From Oculatellaceae cyanobacterium bins.114 (GTDB taxonomy: Bacteria > Cyanobacteriota > Cyanobacteriia > Elainellales > Elainellaceae), in contig JANRJA010000228.1 of the NCBI GenBank assembly GCA_033764315.1, positions 1 through 61,512 on the forward strand: 61,512 bases of DNA, written 5' to 3'. Position numbers and translations under genes: made by a program. Positions 36,921 to 45,262 of the stretch are shown here, piece after piece (position 1 is the first letter of the stretch; the number at the start of each line of letters is the position of its first letter). The notes below the pieces were generated by a model. The model saw only the letters and a program-made list of their open reading frames with translations, was not told the origin of the DNA and did no database searches.

Positions 36921-39269
36921 ATGCAGAAGCTGGTAGAGGTGCTGATCAAGTTTACGCCATCGGGATTCGGCATTGGGGTCACGGCTCATGCCTTGTTGCA
37001 GCACCAATGGACTCAAGCCGGGATCATGGCGTTTTTCACAGGCATTACATCGCTGTGGATCAAGTTTAGCAGCGAGTTTATGAAAGAGGCAGAAGCCGAA
37101 GCCGCCAAACTGGGAGGTGGATTTGCCAAATGGGTGTTTGCGCTGTTGAATAAAGCGATCGCGGCTCTGCAAACTCGTGCTGTTCAACTTTGGCAAGACA
37201 TCACCTCTGACTTTGAGGGCAAATATTTTAAGCGACTGTCTTATATCTGCCGTGACTATGAAACGCAGGGGTTAGACCGGGGTCGAGGGCTAAAGCTGCA
37301 ACAGGTATATGTTTCAGTCCGGTTGTCTCAACAAGATCTGGCGGCGATTTCGCCCAACTTGCTGAAGCAACTCAAAGGTGAGGAAGGGTTAAATCGCAGC
37401 TTTGAGATTGGAGACATGCTGGCATTAATGGCGCGTCAACCTGAAGACTTTCGGCGATTAGCCATTTTGGGCGCACCCGGATCAGGGAAAACGACCTTAA
37501 TGCGTTACATCACTCTGAAGTACGTCACACGCCAACAGCGTCAACTCCATCCCAAAGCACCTCAACTCATTCCCGTGCTGCTCTATCTGCGTGAGATGTA
37601 TCCGCAGATTTTGCAAACGCCCCAGCCCTCTCTGGCAGATCTGTTAACCCAATGGGTGCAGGGTTTACAGACCGAAAACCCCTTAAAGCCACCATCTAAT
37701 TGGTTCAACAAACAACTCCAGCAGGGACGCTGTTTAGTGTTGATCGATGGCTTAGACGAAGTGCCCGACGAACACCAGCGTCAGCAGGTGAGCCAATGGG
37801 TCGATCGCCAAATGGCAAATTATTTGGAAACCCCACTTATTTTGACCTCCCGCAAAGCAGGCTATGAAAGTGCACAACTGCAAGAAAATGTGAGGGTTCT
37901 GGAGGTGCAACCCTTTACCTCAAAGCAGATTGATACGTTTGTGAAGAACTGGTATTTGCAAACCGAGGTAAACAGCCGTGGTGATGAGCTAGATGACGGA
38001 GTGCGAGACGCAGCAACGCAACAAGCGAATCACCTGTTGCAGGAAATTAAACGTCGCCCTGCTCTAAGGGAATTGGCATCCAATCCACTGCTGCTGACCA
38101 TGATTGCCACGGTGCATCAACGCGGCAGTAGTCTACCGTTAAAGCGGGTAGACCTCTACAAAATGATCTGTGAAGTGCTATTAGAAAAGCGATCGCAGGC
38201 AAAGATTGCTCGTCGCATTTCAGGGATAAATAACTCCCCTTTACCCGAAAGACTTGCACTCACCGCCAGCCAAAAGCGGGTGATTTTGCAACCGCTGGCA
38301 CTGGAGCTAACCCGTCGAGAAGTGCTGAAGTTTACGCTGAATGATGTATCGGCGTTGTTGCAGGAAAAATTGAATAGCCTGCCCGGAAAGCCGCTTTCCC
38401 CAGCCGAGTTCTTAAAACAACTGCGCGAAGTCGATGCGCTGATTGCCAAAGAACAGGAAGACCTCTACGAATTTGCCCATCGTAGTTTTCAGGAATATCT
38501 AGCATCCGCAGAAATCAAAGAAACTCATCAGGAAGTGTTGTTGCTTGACGCTCTGCAAACCTCCGATAAGTTGAAATGGTGGCAAGAAACCATGCTGTTT
38601 TATGCCGCTCAAGCCGACGCTTCCAATCTGATCGCAGCCATCTTGCAGCAACCCACCTTTGAAACAATGCAGCTTGTCTGTACCTTGTTGCAGGAGGGAT
38701 TAACCATTCGGCAGGAAGTACAGGAAGCATTACTAGCTAAGTTACAGGACGTGCTGCAACCGCTTGACCCAGACACCCTCAAACTGGTCACGCAAAAACA
38801 ACTGGAGCCGCGCTATTACAAACTGGGCTATTACTTGCAACAGCAACAGTGGCGAGAGGCAGACCAGGAAACCTGGCTCGTCATGATTGAAGTAGGCGAT
38901 CGCACCTACAAACGCTATCTTGACCTAGACGATATCCAAAACTTTCCCTGCGACCACCTGCGGATTATCGATCGCCTCTGGGTCGCCTACAGCAAAACCC
39001 CCGATCACCCCAACGGCAAATGGGGCTTTAGTGTGCAAAAGACCATCTGGCAAGACTGTGGTAGCCCAATGGACTACAATGACGAGTGGGAAAAGTTTGG
39101 CGATCGTGTCGGTTGGCGCAAGGACGGGGTTTGGGTGATCTACAACGACCTCACATTTGACCTCGAAAAACCTTTAGAGGGAAAATTTCCGGTGATGATG
39201 GGGTATTGGGTGGGTTGGTTCTCTTCTCTCGCGCAGAGACTTGTAGAGTCTAGCACAAGCCAGCTCTAG
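36921..39269 (+). CDS. NACHT (STAND) NTPase with C-terminal GUN4-like domain
   Basis: N-terminal hydrophobic helices; Walker A GAPGSGKT; Walker B LIDGLDE; NPLLL; FAHRSFQEYL; GUN4 motifs WREADQET, FPC..L..IDRLW, GFSVQK.IW. Confidence 0.92.
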   Translation: MQKLVEVLIKFTPSGFGIGVTAHALLQHQWTQAGIMAFFTGITSLWIKFSSEFMKEAEAEAAKLGGGFAKWVFALLNKAIAALQTRAVQLWQDITSDFEGKYFKRLSYICRDYETQGLDRGRGLKLQQVYVSVRLSQQDLAAISPNLLKQLKGEEGLNRSFEIGDMLALMARQPEDFRRLAILGAPGSGKTTLMRYITLKYVTRQQRQLHPKAPQLIPVLLYLREMYPQILQTPQPSLADLLTQWVQGLQTENPLKPPSNWFNKQLQQGRCLVLIDGLDEVPDEHQRQQVSQWVDRQMANYLETPLILTSRKAGYESAQLQENVRVLEVQPFTSKQIDTFVKNWYLQTEVNSRGDELDDGVRDAATQQANHLLQEIKRRPALRELASNPLLLTMIATVHQRGSSLPLKRVDLYKMICEVLLEKRSQAKIARRISGINNSPLPERLALTASQKRVILQPLALELTRREVLKFTLNDVSALLQEKLNSLPGKPLSPAEFLKQLREVDALIAKEQEDLYEFAHRSFQEYLASAEIKETHQEVLLLDALQTSDKLKWWQETMLFYAAQADASNLIAAILQQPTFETMQLVCTLLQEGLTIRQEVQEALLAKLQDVLQPLDPDTLKLVTQKQLEPRYYKLGYYLQQQQWREADQETWLVMIEVGDRTYKRYLDLDDIQNFPCDHLRIIDRLWVAYSKTPDHPNGKWGFSVQKTIWQDCGSPMDYNDEWEKFGDRVGWRKDGVWVIYNDLTFDLEKPLEGKFPVMMGYWVGWFSSLAQRLVESSTSQL

Positions 39270-39354
39270 AAATTTTTTAAGATTTGCAAATACAAGCTTT
39301 CTACACGATTTTCCGTCCTTTGCCGAATTCGTTACCTGGCACCAAAGCTTTTTT

Positions 39355-39387
39355 AGCTCCCCGGCTGCTTTAAGCAGCCGGGGAGCT
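39355..39387. repeat. Perfect 16-bp inverted repeat (REP-like / bidirectional terminator)
   Basis: AGCTCCCCGGCTGCTT-T-AAGCAGCCGGGGAGCT between the convergent GUN4 and transposase stops. Confidence 0.85.
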
Positions 39388-39392
39388 CTCAT

Positions 39393-40159
39393 TCAAGGGA
39401 TTGCAAACCTCAGTCCAGCTATGTTCGGATCAAAGCAATTTGCCAGCACAAACTTCTCTGCAACCTGACGAATTTCTTGAGCCGGGGCATTCCACTCATG
39501 CCAAAGCGACTGTTGTCCTGGACTGGTCTTCTTCTTGAGTTGGCTCTTTACTTTAATCTGTGCTAGCAGTTTCTTCCCCAATAATTTTTCTTCTCTGGCT
39601 TGGGTTGGGGTTTATACTTTTTGCAAAATTTGCGATACGCCGCTGCACAAATCTCCAGAGTTGCCCCCAACGCCAAAAACGCTGGGTGCCATTGAGTAAT
39701 GCCATCATCGGTTAACCGATCATAGCTACCATAATTGCTGTAATCATAAAACCAGCCCTGCTGCATGTTGGCGGCTTTGGGGTTGGCGTGAATATACCGC
39801 AAAGTGTTCAAGGCTCTGAGTTTATCGCTGATCGGAAACCCAGTGCTGTGATATCGTTTTTCCCAAAAATGCCCTGTCCGATTCATCATCCGGTTAAAGC
39901 ACATTGCCGTATACCAATTCAACCAGTGCATAATATCTGGCAGATCTTCTGGCTGGGCAGGTTCCAGTAAGTAATGCACATGGTTGCTCATGATGCACAC
40001 GGCATAAAGCTTAAAGCCATATTTTTCCTGACATTTCTGAATTGCATAAAGCAATACCTCGCGGCATTCATCTCGAATTAAGCGAAATTCTCGATTGTTG
40101 CAGCGCAGGGTGATGTGATAGCAATATCCAGGTTTGAGTTCACGTTTTTGTCGAGGCAT
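39393..40159 (-). pseudogene. RAYT-like (Y1 HUH) tyrosine transposase with a 1-bp frameshift near 39575
   Basis: YHITLRCNN, MSNHVH (HUH), GHFWEKRY, YIHANP. The reading frame continues as KLLAQIK... in ORF 39393-39581. Confidence 0.8.
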
Positions 40160-40225
40160 AGGACTTGCAGGTACAAAAATTTTCAACAAATGCCGTGCCC
40201 TTACACCCGATAAACACAAATTGAG

Positions 40226-40324
40226 TTAGAACCTGATTTGTCCATATAGAAGCGGTAGCAAACCAAGTTGAGAAATCTGATAGAGATATTGAATCGGTGA
40301 GGTATCTGTAATCACCTCAGGCAT
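40226..40324 (-). pseudogene. Truncated DUF3368-like PIN toxin (32 aa)
   Basis: MPEVITDTSPIQYLYQISQLGLLPLLYGQIRF*; overlaps the UPF0175 stop codon. Confidence 0.75.
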
Positions 40325-40568
40325 TAGTTAAATCCTCAGCTAATTCAGCTTCGGTCAGACGAAAGGTATCTATGCTGTAATCAGCAAGTTTGGTTAGGAA
40401 GACAGTTCGAGGAATACCTGCCAAATTTGCCGCAGCACCAGAAGATAGCCGACCTAGTTCATAAAGCTTAATGGCAACAACCAATAACATTTCCTGCCCC
40501 AAATCTTCAGGAGTGGTTTGCAACGCTTGCAGCGTTTCATCCGGAATGGTTAGGGTGACGGTGTGCAT
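40317..40568 (-). CDS. UPF0175 family antitoxin
   Basis: AIKLYELGRLSSGAAANLAGIPR..FL..L. Confidence 0.88.
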   Translation of the reverse strand: MHTVTLTIPDETLQALQTTPEDLGQEMLLVVAIKLYELGRLSSGAAANLAGIPRTVFLTKLADYSIDTFRLTEAELAEDLTNA

Positions 40569-40659
40569 GGTGGTAACTCAGGAGAATGCCGTTTTCTACT
40601 TTCAGCATAACTAATTTACCGATATTGCAGTGAGTAACAGATCGCTGAAACTAACACCC

Positions 40660-41034
40660 TCATTCCTCAGGCTCTGCCTGGGAACGTATACCATTTCTAG
40701 AAATTTGGGCTAAACACCAATATCCTCGTAAGGGCGTTTCGCGAAACGCCCCTACCGCCGATCTGGGACTGCGATCGCTTACGGTTAAGAACCTCAACAC
40801 AACATTTGGGAACTCAAACACAATATTCAAGTACTCCAACACGACTTTTGGAAACCTCAATACGATGTTGAGGTACTTCAACACAATATTCAAGTACTTC
40901 AACACGATATTCAAGTACTCAAACTCAATATTCAAGTACTCAAACACAACTTTTAGGAACCCAAACACAATATTCAAGTACTTCAACACAACTTTTAGGA
41001 ACCCAAACACGATATTCAAGTACTCCAATAACAT
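40660..41034 (-). CDS. Possible heptad-repeat hydrophobic protein encoded by the array
   Basis: Open frame (L/F)(K/E/R/G)(Y/F)(L/P)(N/K)(I/V)V with mostly conservative substitutions; runs into a REP, so it may be spurious. Confidence 0.3.
   Translation of the reverse strand: MLLEYLNIVFGFLKVVLKYLNIVFGFLKVVFEYLNIEFEYLNIVLKYLNIVLKYLNIVLRFPKVVLEYLNIVFEFPNVVLRFLTVSDRSPRSAVGAFRETPLRGYWCLAQISRNGIRSQAEPEE
40693..40763. repeat. GTAG-type REP-like element, family D
   Basis: GTAAGGGCGTTTCGCGAAACGCCCCTAC palindrome; copies at 17355, 45908 and 61046. Confidence 0.8.
40796..41026. repeat. Degenerate tandem array, 11 x 21 bp (consensus AACACAATATTCAAGTACTYM)
   Basis: Units in exact 21-bp register from 40796; two unit types interspersed; HIP1 sites flank it at 40771 and 41063. 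Confidence 0.95.
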
Positions 41035-42127: not shown

Positions 42128-43384
42128 ATGGGTACGAACCTCAAATATCGCATTGGCGGCTACCAACCTGGCACTCGCCCCGATCATGCTAAATCTCATC
42201 AAGCGGGTCGGTTTGAGAAGCAACAATTGCCACATCGGGTTGATCTGCGAAAATTTATGACCGATGTAGAAGAGCAGGTTGGCAATAGTTGTGTCGCCAA
42301 TGCCTTTGTGGGAGCCTATGAATATTTGGCTAAGCGCGAACTTGGTGAAGCGGGAGATGTCAGTCGTTTGTTTTTGTATTACAACGCTCGGGCGCGACAT
42401 AACAGCCAGAATGAAGATAGCGGCACCATGATGTATTGCGCGATCGAGAGTTTGATGGAACATGGGGCTTGCTGCGAAGATTTGTGGCTCAATGATGAAT
42501 CAATGATTTTTAATGAGCCTGACGCATCCGCTTATGAGAATGCAGCCAATTTCACAATTACTGAAGCTGAGGTTATTGAAACTGATTTAGATTTATGGCG
42601 ACACACGTTAGCAGAAGGTCATCCCATCGCCTTTGCCCTCAATCTATTTGAATCCTTCAACACAGCGACTGAAAATCGAGGTCGTATTTCACTCCCCAAA
42701 AAATCTGAGAATGTACGAGAAACCCATGCGTGGCACGCCATGCTTTGCGTGGGATATTCTGACAAAGACCGAATGTTTATCGTGAGAAATTCCTGGGGAC
42801 CAGAATGGGGCGATCGCGGCTATTGCTACATTCCCTATGACTACGTCATGCACCCAGACTATAACGGGCATGACTCCTGGATTATCAAATCGGTTAATGA
42901 TCTAGATTTCACCTCTGAGGTTTGGGAAGACGATGAATCTTCCTTTTCGGATGAAAATTCCTTACTCCTATATGACTTCTATATCACCACAGAAGATCCT
43001 GAAGGATTTGCCGAAGCATTGGACGCTCTGTGTCTAGAGTATGTCGAGAGCGAAGAAGACTACTACTTTGACTATGACTACGAAGAAACCGACGAAGGCA
43101 CAACTCACCTCAATATTCTCAACTTTGATCTGACGATAGAAGACTCTACTGAGTTTTTAGAGAACTTAGACGCGCTTTGTCAAGAATATGCCGTTGACGA
43201 AGATTATGACTATACGTTAGATGGAGAAATCAACGAAGAGGACTCTGAAGACGAAGAAGAGGAAGAAGAGTATGACGAAGAAGAGTTAGAGATTGAAGAT
43301 AGCGACGAAGAAGACTTTGAAGAAGAGGAATATGACGAAGAAAGCTCTGAAGATGATGAAGAATATGATGAAGATGACGAATAG
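42128..43384 (+). CDS. Papain-like C1 cysteine peptidase with acidic C-terminal region
   Basis: Q...SCVANA (Cys), HAMLCVGY (His), RNSWG (Asn); D/E-rich tail. Confidence 0.9.
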   Translation: MGTNLKYRIGGYQPGTRPDHAKSHQAGRFEKQQLPHRVDLRKFMTDVEEQVGNSCVANAFVGAYEYLAKRELGEAGDVSRLFLYYNARARHNSQNEDSGTMMYCAIESLMEHGACCEDLWLNDESMIFNEPDASAYENAANFTITEAEVIETDLDLWRHTLAEGHPIAFALNLFESFNTATENRGRISLPKKSENVRETHAWHAMLCVGYSDKDRMFIVRNSWGPEWGDRGYCYIPYDYVMHPDYNGHDSWIIKSVNDLDFTSEVWEDDESSFSDENSLLLYDFYITTEDPEGFAEALDALCLEYVESEEDYYFDYDYEETDEGTTHLNILNFDLTIEDSTEFLENLDALCQEYAVDEDYDYTLDGEINEEDSEDEEEEEEYDEEELEIEDSDEEDFEEEEYDEESSEDDEEYDEDDE

Positions 43385-43744: not shown

Positions 43745-45262
43745 ATGATTCGTGTCAGAGCGCCTGAAATTCCCGCCCAGTTTGACTGGTTGAATGCAGA
43801 ACAACCCGCTTTGTCATTAAAAGCGTTGCGAGGTTACGTCATTCTCCTGGAGTTTTGGACGTATGGCTGTATCAATTGTTTGCACGTCATTCCAGATCTG
43901 AAGTATTTAGAACAGAAATATGGCGATCGCCTCATTGTGATTGGGGTTCACACCGCTAAGTTTGACCACGAAAATCATCCTGATAGTATTCAGCAAGCCG
44001 TGTTGCGATATGGCATTTCCCATCCCGTAGTGATTGATCGCGATCGCCATCTTTGGGATCAGTATACGGTGAAGGCATATCCCACCGTGGTGGTCATTGA
44101 CCCACAAGGATATATAGCCGGAACGATTGTTGGTGAAGGTCAACGACAGAGGTTAGAAACCCTGATTCAACAGGTATTACACGCCCATGATGGCAAGGAA
44201 ATGCTTCCTGATGCTTCCCTGCAACTGACCCTACAACCTCCTCAAACGCCGCCTCTCTCGCCACTCGCGTTTCCCGGAAAAGTCATAACTGACGAAGAGA
44301 GCCATTTACTGTGTATTGCTGACACAGGGCATCATCGCCTGGTGATTACCACACTGGATGGGGCACTGAAAGCAGTAATCGGTACAGGTGAGGCGGGCAG
44401 GCTAGATGGAGCCTGGGCAGTGGCTCAATTTGCTGCACCGCAAGGGATGGCGTTCGATCGCCAGAAACAGGTGCTCTATGTGGCAGACACGGGTAATCAT
44501 CAATTGCGATGTGTTGATTTATCCGCTCAGACTGTGAGTACGATCGCCGGTACTGGAAGCCAGAGCCAGTGGTTGTTTCCGCATGGGGGTAAAGCGTTAG
44601 ATCTCGATCTCAACTCTCCCTGGGATGTGGTACAGCGTGAGGACAGACTATATGTGGCAATGGCAGGCTCTCACCAAATTTGGGTAATGGATTTGTTAGA
44701 ACACACCCTTCAAACCTGGATGGGTACTGGGGCAGAGTTTTGTGTAGATGGTTCCCCTGAAGTTGCCGCTTTTGCTCAACCCAGTGGACTCGCTATGCAC
44801 ACAGATGAAATATTTGTGGCAGATAGTGAGGTCAGTTCAATTCGAGGGGTTGCTATTCAAAATGTGCCCGTTGCTCGAACAGTATGTGGGAGTGGTCAAC
44901 TATTCGACTTTGGCGATCGCGATGGCATCGGTTCGGTCGTTCGGTTACAACACTGTTTGGGCATCGTTTATGCAGCAGGATTTTTGTGGGTTGCCGATAC
45001 CTACAACCACAAAATCAAACAAATCAATCCAACAACTGGGGAATGTCTAACAATTGCAGGTAGCGGTATCTCTGATCTTCGGAATGGAACGGGGATTGAC
45101 ACAGCTTTTGCAGAACCCTCTGGAGTGACCTATGCCCGTCAACACCTATTTGTTGCAGACACCAATAACCATGCTGTTCGACAAATTCACCTCAAGTCGT
45201 TAGAAGTCAGTACGTTGGAAATACCAACTCTGTGTTCACCTTATGTCTGCCTGCCTGCGTGA
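43745..45262 (+). CDS. Thioredoxin-like plus NHL-repeat protein (SOQ1/NHLRC2-like)
   Basis: FWTYGCINC, GVHTAKF, repeated ADTGNH NHL blades. Confidence 0.9.
   Translation: MIRVRAPEIPAQFDWLNAEQPALSLKALRGYVILLEFWTYGCINCLHVIPDLKYLEQKYGDRLIVIGVHTAKFDHENHPDSIQQAVLRYGISHPVVIDRDRHLWDQYTVKAYPTVVVIDPQGYIAGTIVGEGQRQRLETLIQQVLHAHDGKEMLPDASLQLTLQPPQTPPLSPLAFPGKVITDEESHLLCIADTGHHRLVITTLDGALKAVIGTGEAGRLDGAWAVAQFAAPQGMAFDRQKQVLYVADTGNHQLRCVDLSAQTVSTIAGTGSQSQWLFPHGGKALDLDLNSPWDVVQREDRLYVAMAGSHQIWVMDLLEHTLQTWMGTGAEFCVDGSPEVAAFAQPSGLAMHTDEIFVADSEVSSIRGVAIQNVPVARTVCGSGQLFDFGDRDGIGSVVRLQHCLGIVYAAGFLWVADTYNHKIKQINPTTGECLTIAGSGISDLRNGTGIDTAFAEPSGVTYARQHLFVADTNNHAVRQIHLKSLEVSTLEIPTLCSPYVCLPA

Follow-up and report, generated by a model that had tools for sequence, protein, structure and literature searches.

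Three-part modules of variable tract, three-frame DNA block and convergent RAYT-like gene at the 3' ends of cyanobacterial GUN4 sensor genes

Few prokaryotic mechanisms that aim mutation at a chosen protein segment are known to us: diversity-generating retroelements (DGRs), invertible shufflons or cassettes, and simple-repeat phase variation. Simple-sequence contingency loci undergo phase variation at poly-G/C repeats, where a change in repeat length switches the reading frame off. In V(D)J recombination, junctional diversity arises from a transposase-derived RAG recombinase together with untemplated additions. RAYTs, the tyrosine transposases associated with repetitive extragenic palindromes (REPs), are widespread domesticated transposases for which we know of no established host role. 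Described here is the 3' end of a NACHT-GUN4 gene on contig JANRJA010000228.1 (contig C134) of Oculatellaceae cyanobacterium bins.114 (GCA_033764315.1), where a G/T-rich variable tract and a conserved DNA block meet a convergent RAYT-like gene. The whole contig, 61,512 nucleotides in length, is termed the window.

Relatives of these components have been described. DGRs are reported on cyanobacterial multidomain sensors, with FGS/C-type-lectin variable regions (Vallota-Eastman 2020, in the sections available). Bacterial NACHT proteins with a C-terminal GUN4 are presented, with GUN4 as a tetrapyrrole sensor, in the available sections of Kaur 2020/2021 and the Kibby 2022 preprint. NACHT-GUN4 fusions and RAYTs are each already known.

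The locus is one copy of a conserved three-part cyanobacterial module that consists of a variable tract, a block read in three frames, and a convergent RAYT-like gene. The genome that contains it (the own genome) is assembled into 251 contigs totaling 6.6 Mb. The parts of the window copy are as follows.

36921-39269, + strand: NACHT-GUN4 gene, 782 amino acids (open reading frame (ORF) list and Pfam).
39180-39191, + strand: GKFP, the window form of the GxLP motif and 5' edge of the variable tract (sequence, PDB alignment, paralogue alignment).
39192-39218, + strand: G/T-rich variable tract, 27 nucleotides, VMMGYWVGW, directly after the GxLP motif (sequence, comparisons, Gun4 structure alignment).
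39219-39343, + strand: conserved DNA block of ~125 nucleotides, running from a CT-rich pyrimidine run through tail codons, stop and spacer to TACCTGGCACC (alignments of 22 and 49 junctions).
39219-39230, + strand: pyrimidine/CT run TTCTCTTCTCTC, the 5' end of the block (alignments).
39250-39253, + strand: tag position of the block, CTAG in the window (comparison of 49 modules).
39267-39269, + strand: stop codon TAG of the GUN4 gene, in its own frame of the block (sequence, ORF list).
39333-39343, + strand: TACCTGGCACC motif, the 3' end of the block (alignments).
39393-40159, - strand: RAYT-like HUH Y1 nuclease gene, convergent with the GUN4 gene (Pfam, ORFs, protein and DNA alignments).

Judged from its predicted domains, the host protein is an NLR-like sensor with a GUN4-like domain at its C-terminus. 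Pfam places NACHT at residues 178-344 (E 2.2e-15, 57 bits against a cut-off of 26.7) and GUN4, the Mg-chelatase cofactor family, at residues 628-763 (E 9.8e-31, 107 bits against a cut-off of 29.2). The protein falls far under the cut-offs of the NCBIfam antiphage models. Relatives sampled at one genome per species contain no close orthologue, and the best full-length identity is 41%. Their matches spanning nearly the whole query reach at most 39% identity, and a 47% match spans query residues 79-634 only. The nearest orthologues of the protein are 73-79% identical; their bodies are nearly gap-free, their tips are unalignable, and their tails are read in two frames. These orthologues carry two versions of the GUN4 core (P0005 and P0006 as against P0001-P0004; alignment A1, columns ~700-760). 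One version has a 6-residue insert, KTPDHP, together with SPMDYN, and the other is of the LDGKYPG type found in more distant proteins. This pattern suggests that the 3' part of the gene has been exchanged between paralogues.

The tract reads GTG ATG ATG GGG TAT TGG GTG GGT TGG and is followed by the peptide tail FSSLAQRLVESSTSQL. An earlier note on this DNA had singled out a G/T-skewed GUN4 tip at this position. The composition (16 G, 11 T, 3 A and 0 C in 39191-39220), the peptide VMMGYWVGW and the tail were all found as described. Stretches of 30 nucleotides with no C and at most three A occur at two places only in the window when both strands are scanned, and 19 of 20 mononucleotide shuffles of the window have none. 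The second place is 45003-45036 (-), within an ORF at 43745-45262. Taken alone, this rarity is modest; what gives it weight is that other genes have such a tract at the homologous position.

Tract length is 10-29 residues in 22 genes of relatives and 20-115 nucleotides, with a median of 50, at 51 public loci. The G/T bias is a property of the DNA and not merely of a peptide rich in Gly, Val, Trp, Leu and Phe, because composition is alike at all codon positions and synonymous C is depleted. In 22 RAYT-linked genes, G accounts for 0.46, 0.43, and 0.51 and T for 0.36, 0.39, and 0.30 of codon positions 1, 2, and 3, respectively. At four-fold third positions of the same genes, C occupies 23 of 216 sites in the tip; over the 120 codons upstream it occupies 385 of 1031 (Fisher p 4e-16). 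The tip peptide itself is 22% G, 16% V, 11% W, 10% L, and 9% F.

Tracts open in all three frames number 26 of 50, against 6 of 50 upstream controls of the same length and at most 22 in 200 composition-preserving shuffles. This openness fits past frame changes. The tract is an irregular G/T sequence with G runs of 1-12 nucleotides, in which (GGT)n words are 2.2-fold above expectation. A loose G2+ quadruplex motif fits 40 of 50 tracts, and a G3+ motif fits 10. Partial copies of the first bases of the block or of the GxLP edge lie inside some tracts (L083, L090, L110, L125, and L170). Those at L083, L125, and L170 duplicate the 5' end of the block, and the block-derived word TCTTCT is 43-fold above expectation in tracts. 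The own-genome assembly, from which ~9% of the genome is missing, contains no template repeat or silent cassette for the tract and no further copy of it; matches to paralogues are confined to the block.

Two public assemblies (L152 and L167) have N runs exactly within the tract, and the contigs of L123, L160, and L179 break at the block, 26-129 nucleotides past the RAYT stop. These gaps and breaks fit population heterogeneity or repeat-induced assembly breaks. At L088 (genome G022, contig C20), the RAYT-linked GUN4 ORF runs ~120 residues past GxLP as a Phe/Leu/Val/Tyr-rich extension. This extension may be a greatly enlarged T-rich tract, and the locus was excluded from tip counts.

The position of the tract can be placed on the Gun4 fold. 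The window GKFP aligns to GHLP of solved Gun4 (1Y6I/1Z3X), its P corresponds to Pro208 of Synechocystis Gun4 (1Y6I), and the alignment ends there. In the sections of Verdecia 2005 available, the residues after Pro208 form the end of the alpha6/alpha7 loop, porphyrin is modelled over Leu210, and Arg214 and Arg217 are required for binding. Neither Arg has a counterpart in the GUN4-like domains of the module; in the window, VMMGYWVGW follows the Pro and contains no Arg. By this alignment, the tract appears to take the place of the porphyrin-contacting loop end. 'Sensor loop' is a fair name for it, since exactly that stretch of Gun4 is replaced.

The block was delimited by excising the DNA between tip and RAYT stop, first at 22 loci and later at 49. 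It starts directly after the G/T stretch and has the consensus TCTCTTCTCTCGC....AGACTTGT.AA.TGTAGCA ... AAAGTTTTGTAA ... TTTC.GCGATCCGTTACCTGGCACC. Conservation extends to every codon position in both sets of junctions, that is, the block is conserved as DNA. It is read in three frames (25, 16, and 10 of 51 genes), and every one of them offers a usable tail that ends at a stop codon. The window gene reads FSSLAQRLV..STSQL*, and other genes read SLLSRTDL* or LFSRIQTCKV*. Frame counts refer to the 51 loci whose block edge matched a simple pattern; 24 further loci were missed by the pattern and have the same tails by eye. The tag tetranucleotide in 49 modules is GTAG in 38, GTAA in nine, TTAA in one, and CTAG in one (the window). 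Three to four CT dinucleotides are present at the tract/block junction in 41 of 49 modules, and the GTAG-type tag lies ~25 nucleotides downstream of the CT run. The CT-rich pyrimidine run, the (T)GTAG tag and TACCTGGCACC are candidate recognition elements. The block probably derives from the ancestral GUN4 coding end, because its frame-2 reading LFSRIETCK resembles ALFSRMETCK, the native end of block-less GUN4-like families. Both the tail and the spacer, whose conservation the earlier note had named as support, are kept across genera. Rfam returned nothing near a gathering score in 38500-41000.

The window RAYT matches Pfam Y1_Tnp (PF01797) above the cut-off, with an E value of 1.5e-19. It is present as two ORFs (39563-40219 and 39393-39581) because of a single 1-nucleotide deletion near 39572. 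An intact 275-residue paralogue on contig C172 aligns over the whole window gene at 78% nucleotide identity. Twelve intact homologues share, without variation, the HUH motif SNHVHYL and the Tyr motif LRYIH[AG]NP, and the window copy has both (the latter as LRYIHANP). Judged by motif, NHVH / WE / YIH[AG]NP looks nearest to the signature that Quentin 2018 (Table 1) gives for subclass 2.1. The AlphaFold2 (AF2) model of the C172 paralogue has a pLDDT of 70-86 in the N-domain and below 50 in the C-terminal ~130 residues, where it is unreliable. The best Foldseek match of this predicted structure is TnpA-REP (4ER8_A; E 4.1e-7, TM 0.60 on target), followed by the TnpA of IS200, IS608, and ISDra2. Conserved DNA lies 3' of the gene only, and nothing 5' of the RAYT start codon is conserved across loci. 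Inspection of the ORF lists, with no family-level search for tnpB, turned up no tnpB-like ORF. The window copy of the module is probably inactivated, because its RAYT is frameshifted and its tag reads CTAG; the intact own-genome copy is that on C172.

A UPF0175 antitoxin-like gene (40317-40568, -; Pfam E 2.7e-26) lies directly upstream of the RAYT start in the window. A RAYT homologue of 45% identity in a 2.7 Mb genome (L089, genome G025) has GGTGCCAGGTA 144 nucleotides past its stop, and no GUN4 gene is adjacent to it. The GGTGCCAGGTA motif may belong to the enzyme rather than to GUN4, because it is kept there without an adjacent GUN4 gene.

Linkage of the RAYT clade to GUN4 genes was scored in two sets of genomes. 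The intact C172 protein was used as the query against 41 related genomes, coordinates were compared with those of GUN4 matches, and ORFs were checked. RAYT matches at 71-83% identity are present in 14 of the 41 genomes, across families. Of the 28 distinct RAYT places in relatives, 24 are convergent with a GUN4 gene end; the four without such a gene end comprise two distant homologues (45% and 27% identity), a short fragment, and a place at a contig end. A 12-sequence RAYT alignment was then used on public genomes and retrieved 487 relatives, of which the best 80 loci were examined. A convergent GUN4 ORF lies at most 600 nucleotides away in 74 of these best 80 of 487 loci, which come from many cyanobacterial orders. 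Four of the remaining six run out of DNA, three within 130 nucleotides of the RAYT stop (L123, L160, and L179) and one after 593 nucleotides (L188), where part of the block is visible before the contig ends. At L140 the GUN4 ORF overlaps the RAYT, and L169 is a true exception with no GUN4 ORF. Adjacent GUN4 ORFs were scanned at 64 of the 75 loci that have one, and all 64 carry a C-terminal Pfam GUN4. Their N-terminal partners are NACHT (37), caspase (17), TIR (4), and protein kinase (2), with none detected in four. The co-location of GUN4 genes and this RAYT clade that the earlier note had proposed to look for is therefore found in both sets. The median p-distance is 0.24 for the RAYT versus 0.55 for the partner GUN4 domain, and the two distance matrices correlate modestly (Mantel rho 0.27, reached in 0 of 500 permutations).

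Tip turnover was scored within clusters of proteins that are 90% identical or more. In the P0006 cluster, the bodies of eight full-length members are 99.6% identical (minimum 99.2%), but at least six unrelated tips occur among them, with tails read in two frames. A 3-nucleotide indel and a compensated frameshift are seen in the P0008 cluster (99.9%), and the P0014 cluster (97%) has six tips. The P0125 variant, one of the eight near-identical proteins of the first cluster, is encoded on a contig where block and RAYT are both intact. A metagenome DNA search for near-identical variants yielded one 99% locus only, and tips were compared as proteins rather than as DNA. Alignment of the GUN4 genes shows the length-variable G/T-rich segment as a feature of the DNA. 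None of the three outcomes that had been named as refuting the earlier proposal is observed: the segment varies among genes, the spacer recurs elsewhere, and the RAYT clade goes with GUN4 genes.

A RAYT-less control was assembled from 40 GUN4-like gene ends in genomes without a RAYT-clade match, of which 38 could be scored. Median tip G+T is 0.75 for RAYT-linked ends (n=71), 0.655 for block-positive ends without RAYT (n=12), and 0.59 for block-negative ends (n=26). Several of the 12 block-positive control ends have RAYT remnants and ragged 3' ends. In a block-less kinase-GUN4 family, a 31-residue end is constant in 18 of 19 proteins at a body identity of 72%. Many source genomes are metagenome-assembled genomes (MAGs), and the pattern of tract, block and RAYT is present in isolates and complete genomes too.

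Between the block and the RAYT stop, the window contains a palindrome.

39355-39387, no strand: perfect 16-bp palindrome, a member of a family of REP-like hairpins of the own genome and a few relatives (arm pairing, genome search, module alignments).

Its arms (39355-39370 and 39372-39387) are 16 nucleotides each and 100% complementary. An 85-nucleotide spacer (39270-39354) separates it from the GUN4 stop, and five bases (39388-39392) separate it from the RAYT-like stop at 39393-39395 (-). Spacer, palindrome and gap agree with the earlier description. The family core is CCGG-N-TGCTT-N-AAGCA-N-CCGG, with outer stems that covary. The own genome has 14 matches at up to two mismatches and 30 at up to three, a few of the latter doubtful. 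Most lie between ORF ends (by eye), often with TAG at the foot, and six copies adjoin five of the seven own-genome GUN4 genes. A hairpin occupies this position in six of 49 aligned modules (the window and five near relatives), and in other genomes the intergenic position is usually hairpin-free. The palindrome is a lineage-specific REP-like or terminator-like insert and not the conserved cis-element, because hairpins are rare at this position and each differs in sequence.

Two other Y1 genes accompany hairpins of this kind. A second RAYT type is present at C141:17396-18336 and C202:178-783, within ~40-160 nucleotides of palindrome-family hairpins. Its ORFs begin ..KYNPDKHHRRSIRL.. and end ..DYYDRIIRDE.., and it may be the cognate enzyme of the palindrome family. 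At C29:2381-3089 (L108), REP-like hairpins flank, on each side, a Y1_Tnp gene that is distant from the GUN4-linked clade (31% identity). This layout is that of a classical REPtron, and the gene is also convergent with a GUN4 gene whose block stops after the GTAG tag.

A model for the module can be drawn from the E. coli enzyme. In the sections of Messing 2012 (PMC3479197) available, TnpA-REP requires a 5' GTAG and a hairpin and cleaves single-stranded DNA between C and T, where the CT may be distant from the hairpin. It stays bound as a 5'-phosphotyrosine, a link that in principle any 3'-OH could resolve. Nicking at the tract/block border is proposed here because the block has a GTAG-type tag and a CT run, as TnpA-REP uses. 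With the coding strand single-stranded, the RAYT would bind the block at its tag region, cut the tract/block junction at one of the CTs in the pyrimidine run, and stay attached to the 5' end of the block. Before the RAYT rejoined it, the free 3'-OH would be trimmed, extended or template-switched. Insertions, deletions and replacements would then be limited to the tract, and the block would render every resulting frame productive, with the sensor loop diversifying between strains.

The architecture, the linkage, the bias at DNA level, the use of three frames and the hypervariation between strains are observed. From them we infer that the RAYT is the driver of the variation, that the cut falls at this site, and that the process gives rise to the G/T bias. 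That the RAYT nicks the CT-rich junction and that imprecise rejoining diversifies the ligand-binding loop without a reverse transcriptase (RT) is a proposition we consider evenly balanced. The wider reading is offered more tentatively. It holds that a domesticated RAYT-type HUH nuclease carries out targeted, RT-free diversification of immune-type sensors by repeatedly opening one GUN4 loop junction and resealing it imprecisely, and that the frame-proof block ensures a finished protein.

A number of observations weigh against this model. Tips are identical in clusters P0017, P0116, and P0027, whose bodies are 98-100% identical and were compared irrespective of RAYT status. Linkage is partial from the side of GUN4, as in the own genome a member of the RAYT clade accompanies two of six GUN4-like genes and a distant Y1 gene accompanies one more. 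RAYT copies are often degraded, that of the window included. Tip G/T is 0.73 beside RAYT fragments versus 0.82 beside intact genes, a difference that is not significant (p 0.22), and tips remain G/T-rich in genome G038, where only RAYT fragments were found. RNAalifold on 49 blocks gave no consensus structure (-0.07 kcal/mol). The tag hairpin is weak and imperfect, with a median DNA ∆G of -3.5 and z of -0.7 (z below -1.5 in 13 of 49). The RAYT scores 68 bits against a cut-off of 80 in NCBIfam NF047646 (REP_Tyr_transpos), and E. coli TnpA-REP, the basis of the analogy, is only 19% identical. No enzyme that adds G/T was identified. The idea that repeated cutting had purged CT dinucleotides from the tracts is not supported, as the CT ratio is 1.01 with no depletion.

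The variation could instead stem from the tract itself. As a G-run-rich simple-sequence or G-quadruplex hotspot it would change by slippage and misrepair, the block would have evolved tolerance, and the RAYT would be co-resident as a domesticated or selfish gene, engaged for example in block maintenance or homing, or in regulation by convergent transcription. The G runs of up to 12 nucleotides, the 2.2-fold enrichment of (GGT)n, the quadruplex motifs (G2+ in 40 of 50 and G3+ in 10 of 50 tracts), the 1- and 3-nucleotide indels in the 99.9% cluster, and the G/T-rich tips next to RAYT fragments all favor such instability. Full replacement of the tip at 99.6% body identity, however, exceeds slippage of an existing repeat, and the duplicated block and GxLP edges indicate that DNA was broken and rejoined at fixed borders. 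Near-obligate linkage, RAYT conservation, and conservation of GTAG and the CT run as DNA would also be left unexplained. Instability with a bystander RAYT is judged unlikely, though with a real share of the probability. Distinctly less probable is that RAYT and block form a one-ended, IS-like site-specific mobile element that enters GUN4-like 3' ends and brings its own tail, with the tract as insertion junction or target. Several copies and many remnants per genome, in up to 4-5 places, would fit such an element, as would the distant G025 homologue (45%) with GGTGCCAGGTA past its stop and no nearby GUN4 gene, and the REP-like hairpins on both sides of the distant Y1 gene on C29. A second end is missing, however, since no sequence 5' of the RAYT start is conserved, and the two own-genome copies are merely 78% identical. 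RAYT-less loci stop at ragged points in the block rather than at a uniform empty site, the RAYT and GUN4 distances correlate (Mantel rho 0.27), and the tail appears GUN4-derived, since frame-2 LFSRIETCK resembles native ALFSRMETCK.

Two further explanations are both very improbable. The earlier note had seen a DGR-like geometry and had suggested that an HUH nuclease guided by the palindrome diversifies the GUN4 loop; a related possibility is a DGR-type RT acting in trans. The genome does have four RT genes, and the palindrome does lie five nucleotides from the RAYT stop, with a hairpin there in 6 of 49 modules. The RT genes are on other contigs, none near any GUN4 gene, and the assembly (with the unassembled share given above) has neither a template repeat nor a second tract copy; the earlier note had reported neither an RT nor a template repeat in the window. 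The changes are indels, replacements and frame switches instead of adenine-specific substitutions, which leaves the likeness to DGRs a functional one. Most modules lack the palindrome and its family lies mostly between other genes, scattered through the genome. The earlier suggestion is thus supported in part: the RAYT linkage and the hypervariable tip agree with it, an HUH enzyme that acts on the loop is still a proposal, and the palindrome as the guide is not supported. Ordinary protein evolution or artefact, that is, relaxed selection on a poorly constrained, hydrophobic Gly/Trp/Val-rich tail, or errors of assembly or gene calling, would suit a tip rich in G, V, W, L, and F, the many MAG sources, and the N runs in the tract at two loci. 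It is at odds with a bias that is equal at all codon positions, synonymous sites included, with a single DNA block used in three frames, with the same pattern in isolates and complete genomes, and with the constant end of the block-less control family.

Two other features of the window lie beyond the module. A tandem array at 40812-41028 has a 21-nucleotide period with 10 copies and 68% matches, as well as 42- and 105-nucleotide periods, and repetitive ORFs are open on both of its strands. A papain-family cysteine protease (PF00112, E 5e-10) is encoded at 42128-43384 (+) and has a long, extremely acidic, Asp/Glu-rich C-terminal tail.

The NACHT-GUN4 proteins of Kaur and Kibby have the same domain architecture as the product of the window gene. 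The available sections of Kaur 2020/2021 and Kibby 2022 make no mention of a variable tract, a three-frame end or a linked RAYT, and the words 'transposase' and 'IS200' occur 0 times in Kaur 2020. No published description of the RAYT-GUN4 link, the tract or the three-frame block was found in the parts of the literature searched. What the comparisons add is a RAYT lineage tied almost one-to-one to the 3' ends of NACHT, caspase, TIR and kinase sensor genes, in which a predicted ligand-binding loop differs wholly between otherwise identical strains. If the RAYT is causal, the module would be a new class of diversity generator, and the RAYT lineage would gain its first assigned host function. Even without the RAYT as driver, a coding tract proof against indels, followed by DNA that ends all three frames, is an unusual gene design.

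Among described systems, REPtrons (RAYT/TnpA-REP, E. coli YafM, 4ER8) share the HUH and Tyr Y1 fold, 4ER8 being the best Foldseek match of the predicted structure. They are also alike in having a GT[AG]G-type tag in adjacent conserved DNA with CT nearby, and an enzyme conserved like a host gene. Conserved DNA of the module was found on one side only; a REPtron gene is flanked on both sides by inverted cognate REP hairpins with a 5' GT[AG]G. The module block has no high-copy REP array, each block lies within a GUN4 gene 3' end, and several module copies occur per genome. The module RAYT also differs in a C-terminal extension of ~130 residues and in scoring below the NCBIfam RAYT cut-off, and the module implies a specific gene target. 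Compared with IS200/IS605 insertion sequences, which have subterminal hairpins at both the left and right ends, the module has no conserved 5' flank, and its own-genome copies are 78% identical rather than near-identical.

Contingency loci resemble the module in their short, G-run-rich, length-unstable coding tract. The module tract is irregular by comparison, a frameshift leaves the gene on because the block ends the protein in every frame, and a nuclease gene is linked. With V(D)J recombination the likeness is a functional analogy only, in that an enzyme of a domesticated transposase family is paired with an immune-type receptor loop varied by imprecise junctions of variable length. The module is described from sequence, its enzyme family is unrelated, it has no gene segments to join, and its variation lies between strains rather than within an individual. 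Were the RAYT causal, it would nonetheless be a bacterial counterpart of antigen-receptor junctional diversity.

DGRs share with the module a localized hypervariable stretch in the C-terminal ligand-binding domain of kinase, caspase, TIR or NACHT proteins, and an invariant DNA element after the variable part. The module differs in having no linked RT, template repeat or adenine-specific substitution, and in varying in length and frame. Its domain is GUN4 rather than a C-type lectin, and its linked enzyme is an HUH nuclease. If the proposed role of the RAYT holds, cyanobacterial NLR-like proteins would use a hypervariable receptor of this kind in parallel to the DGR-diversified lectin domains found on the same architectures.

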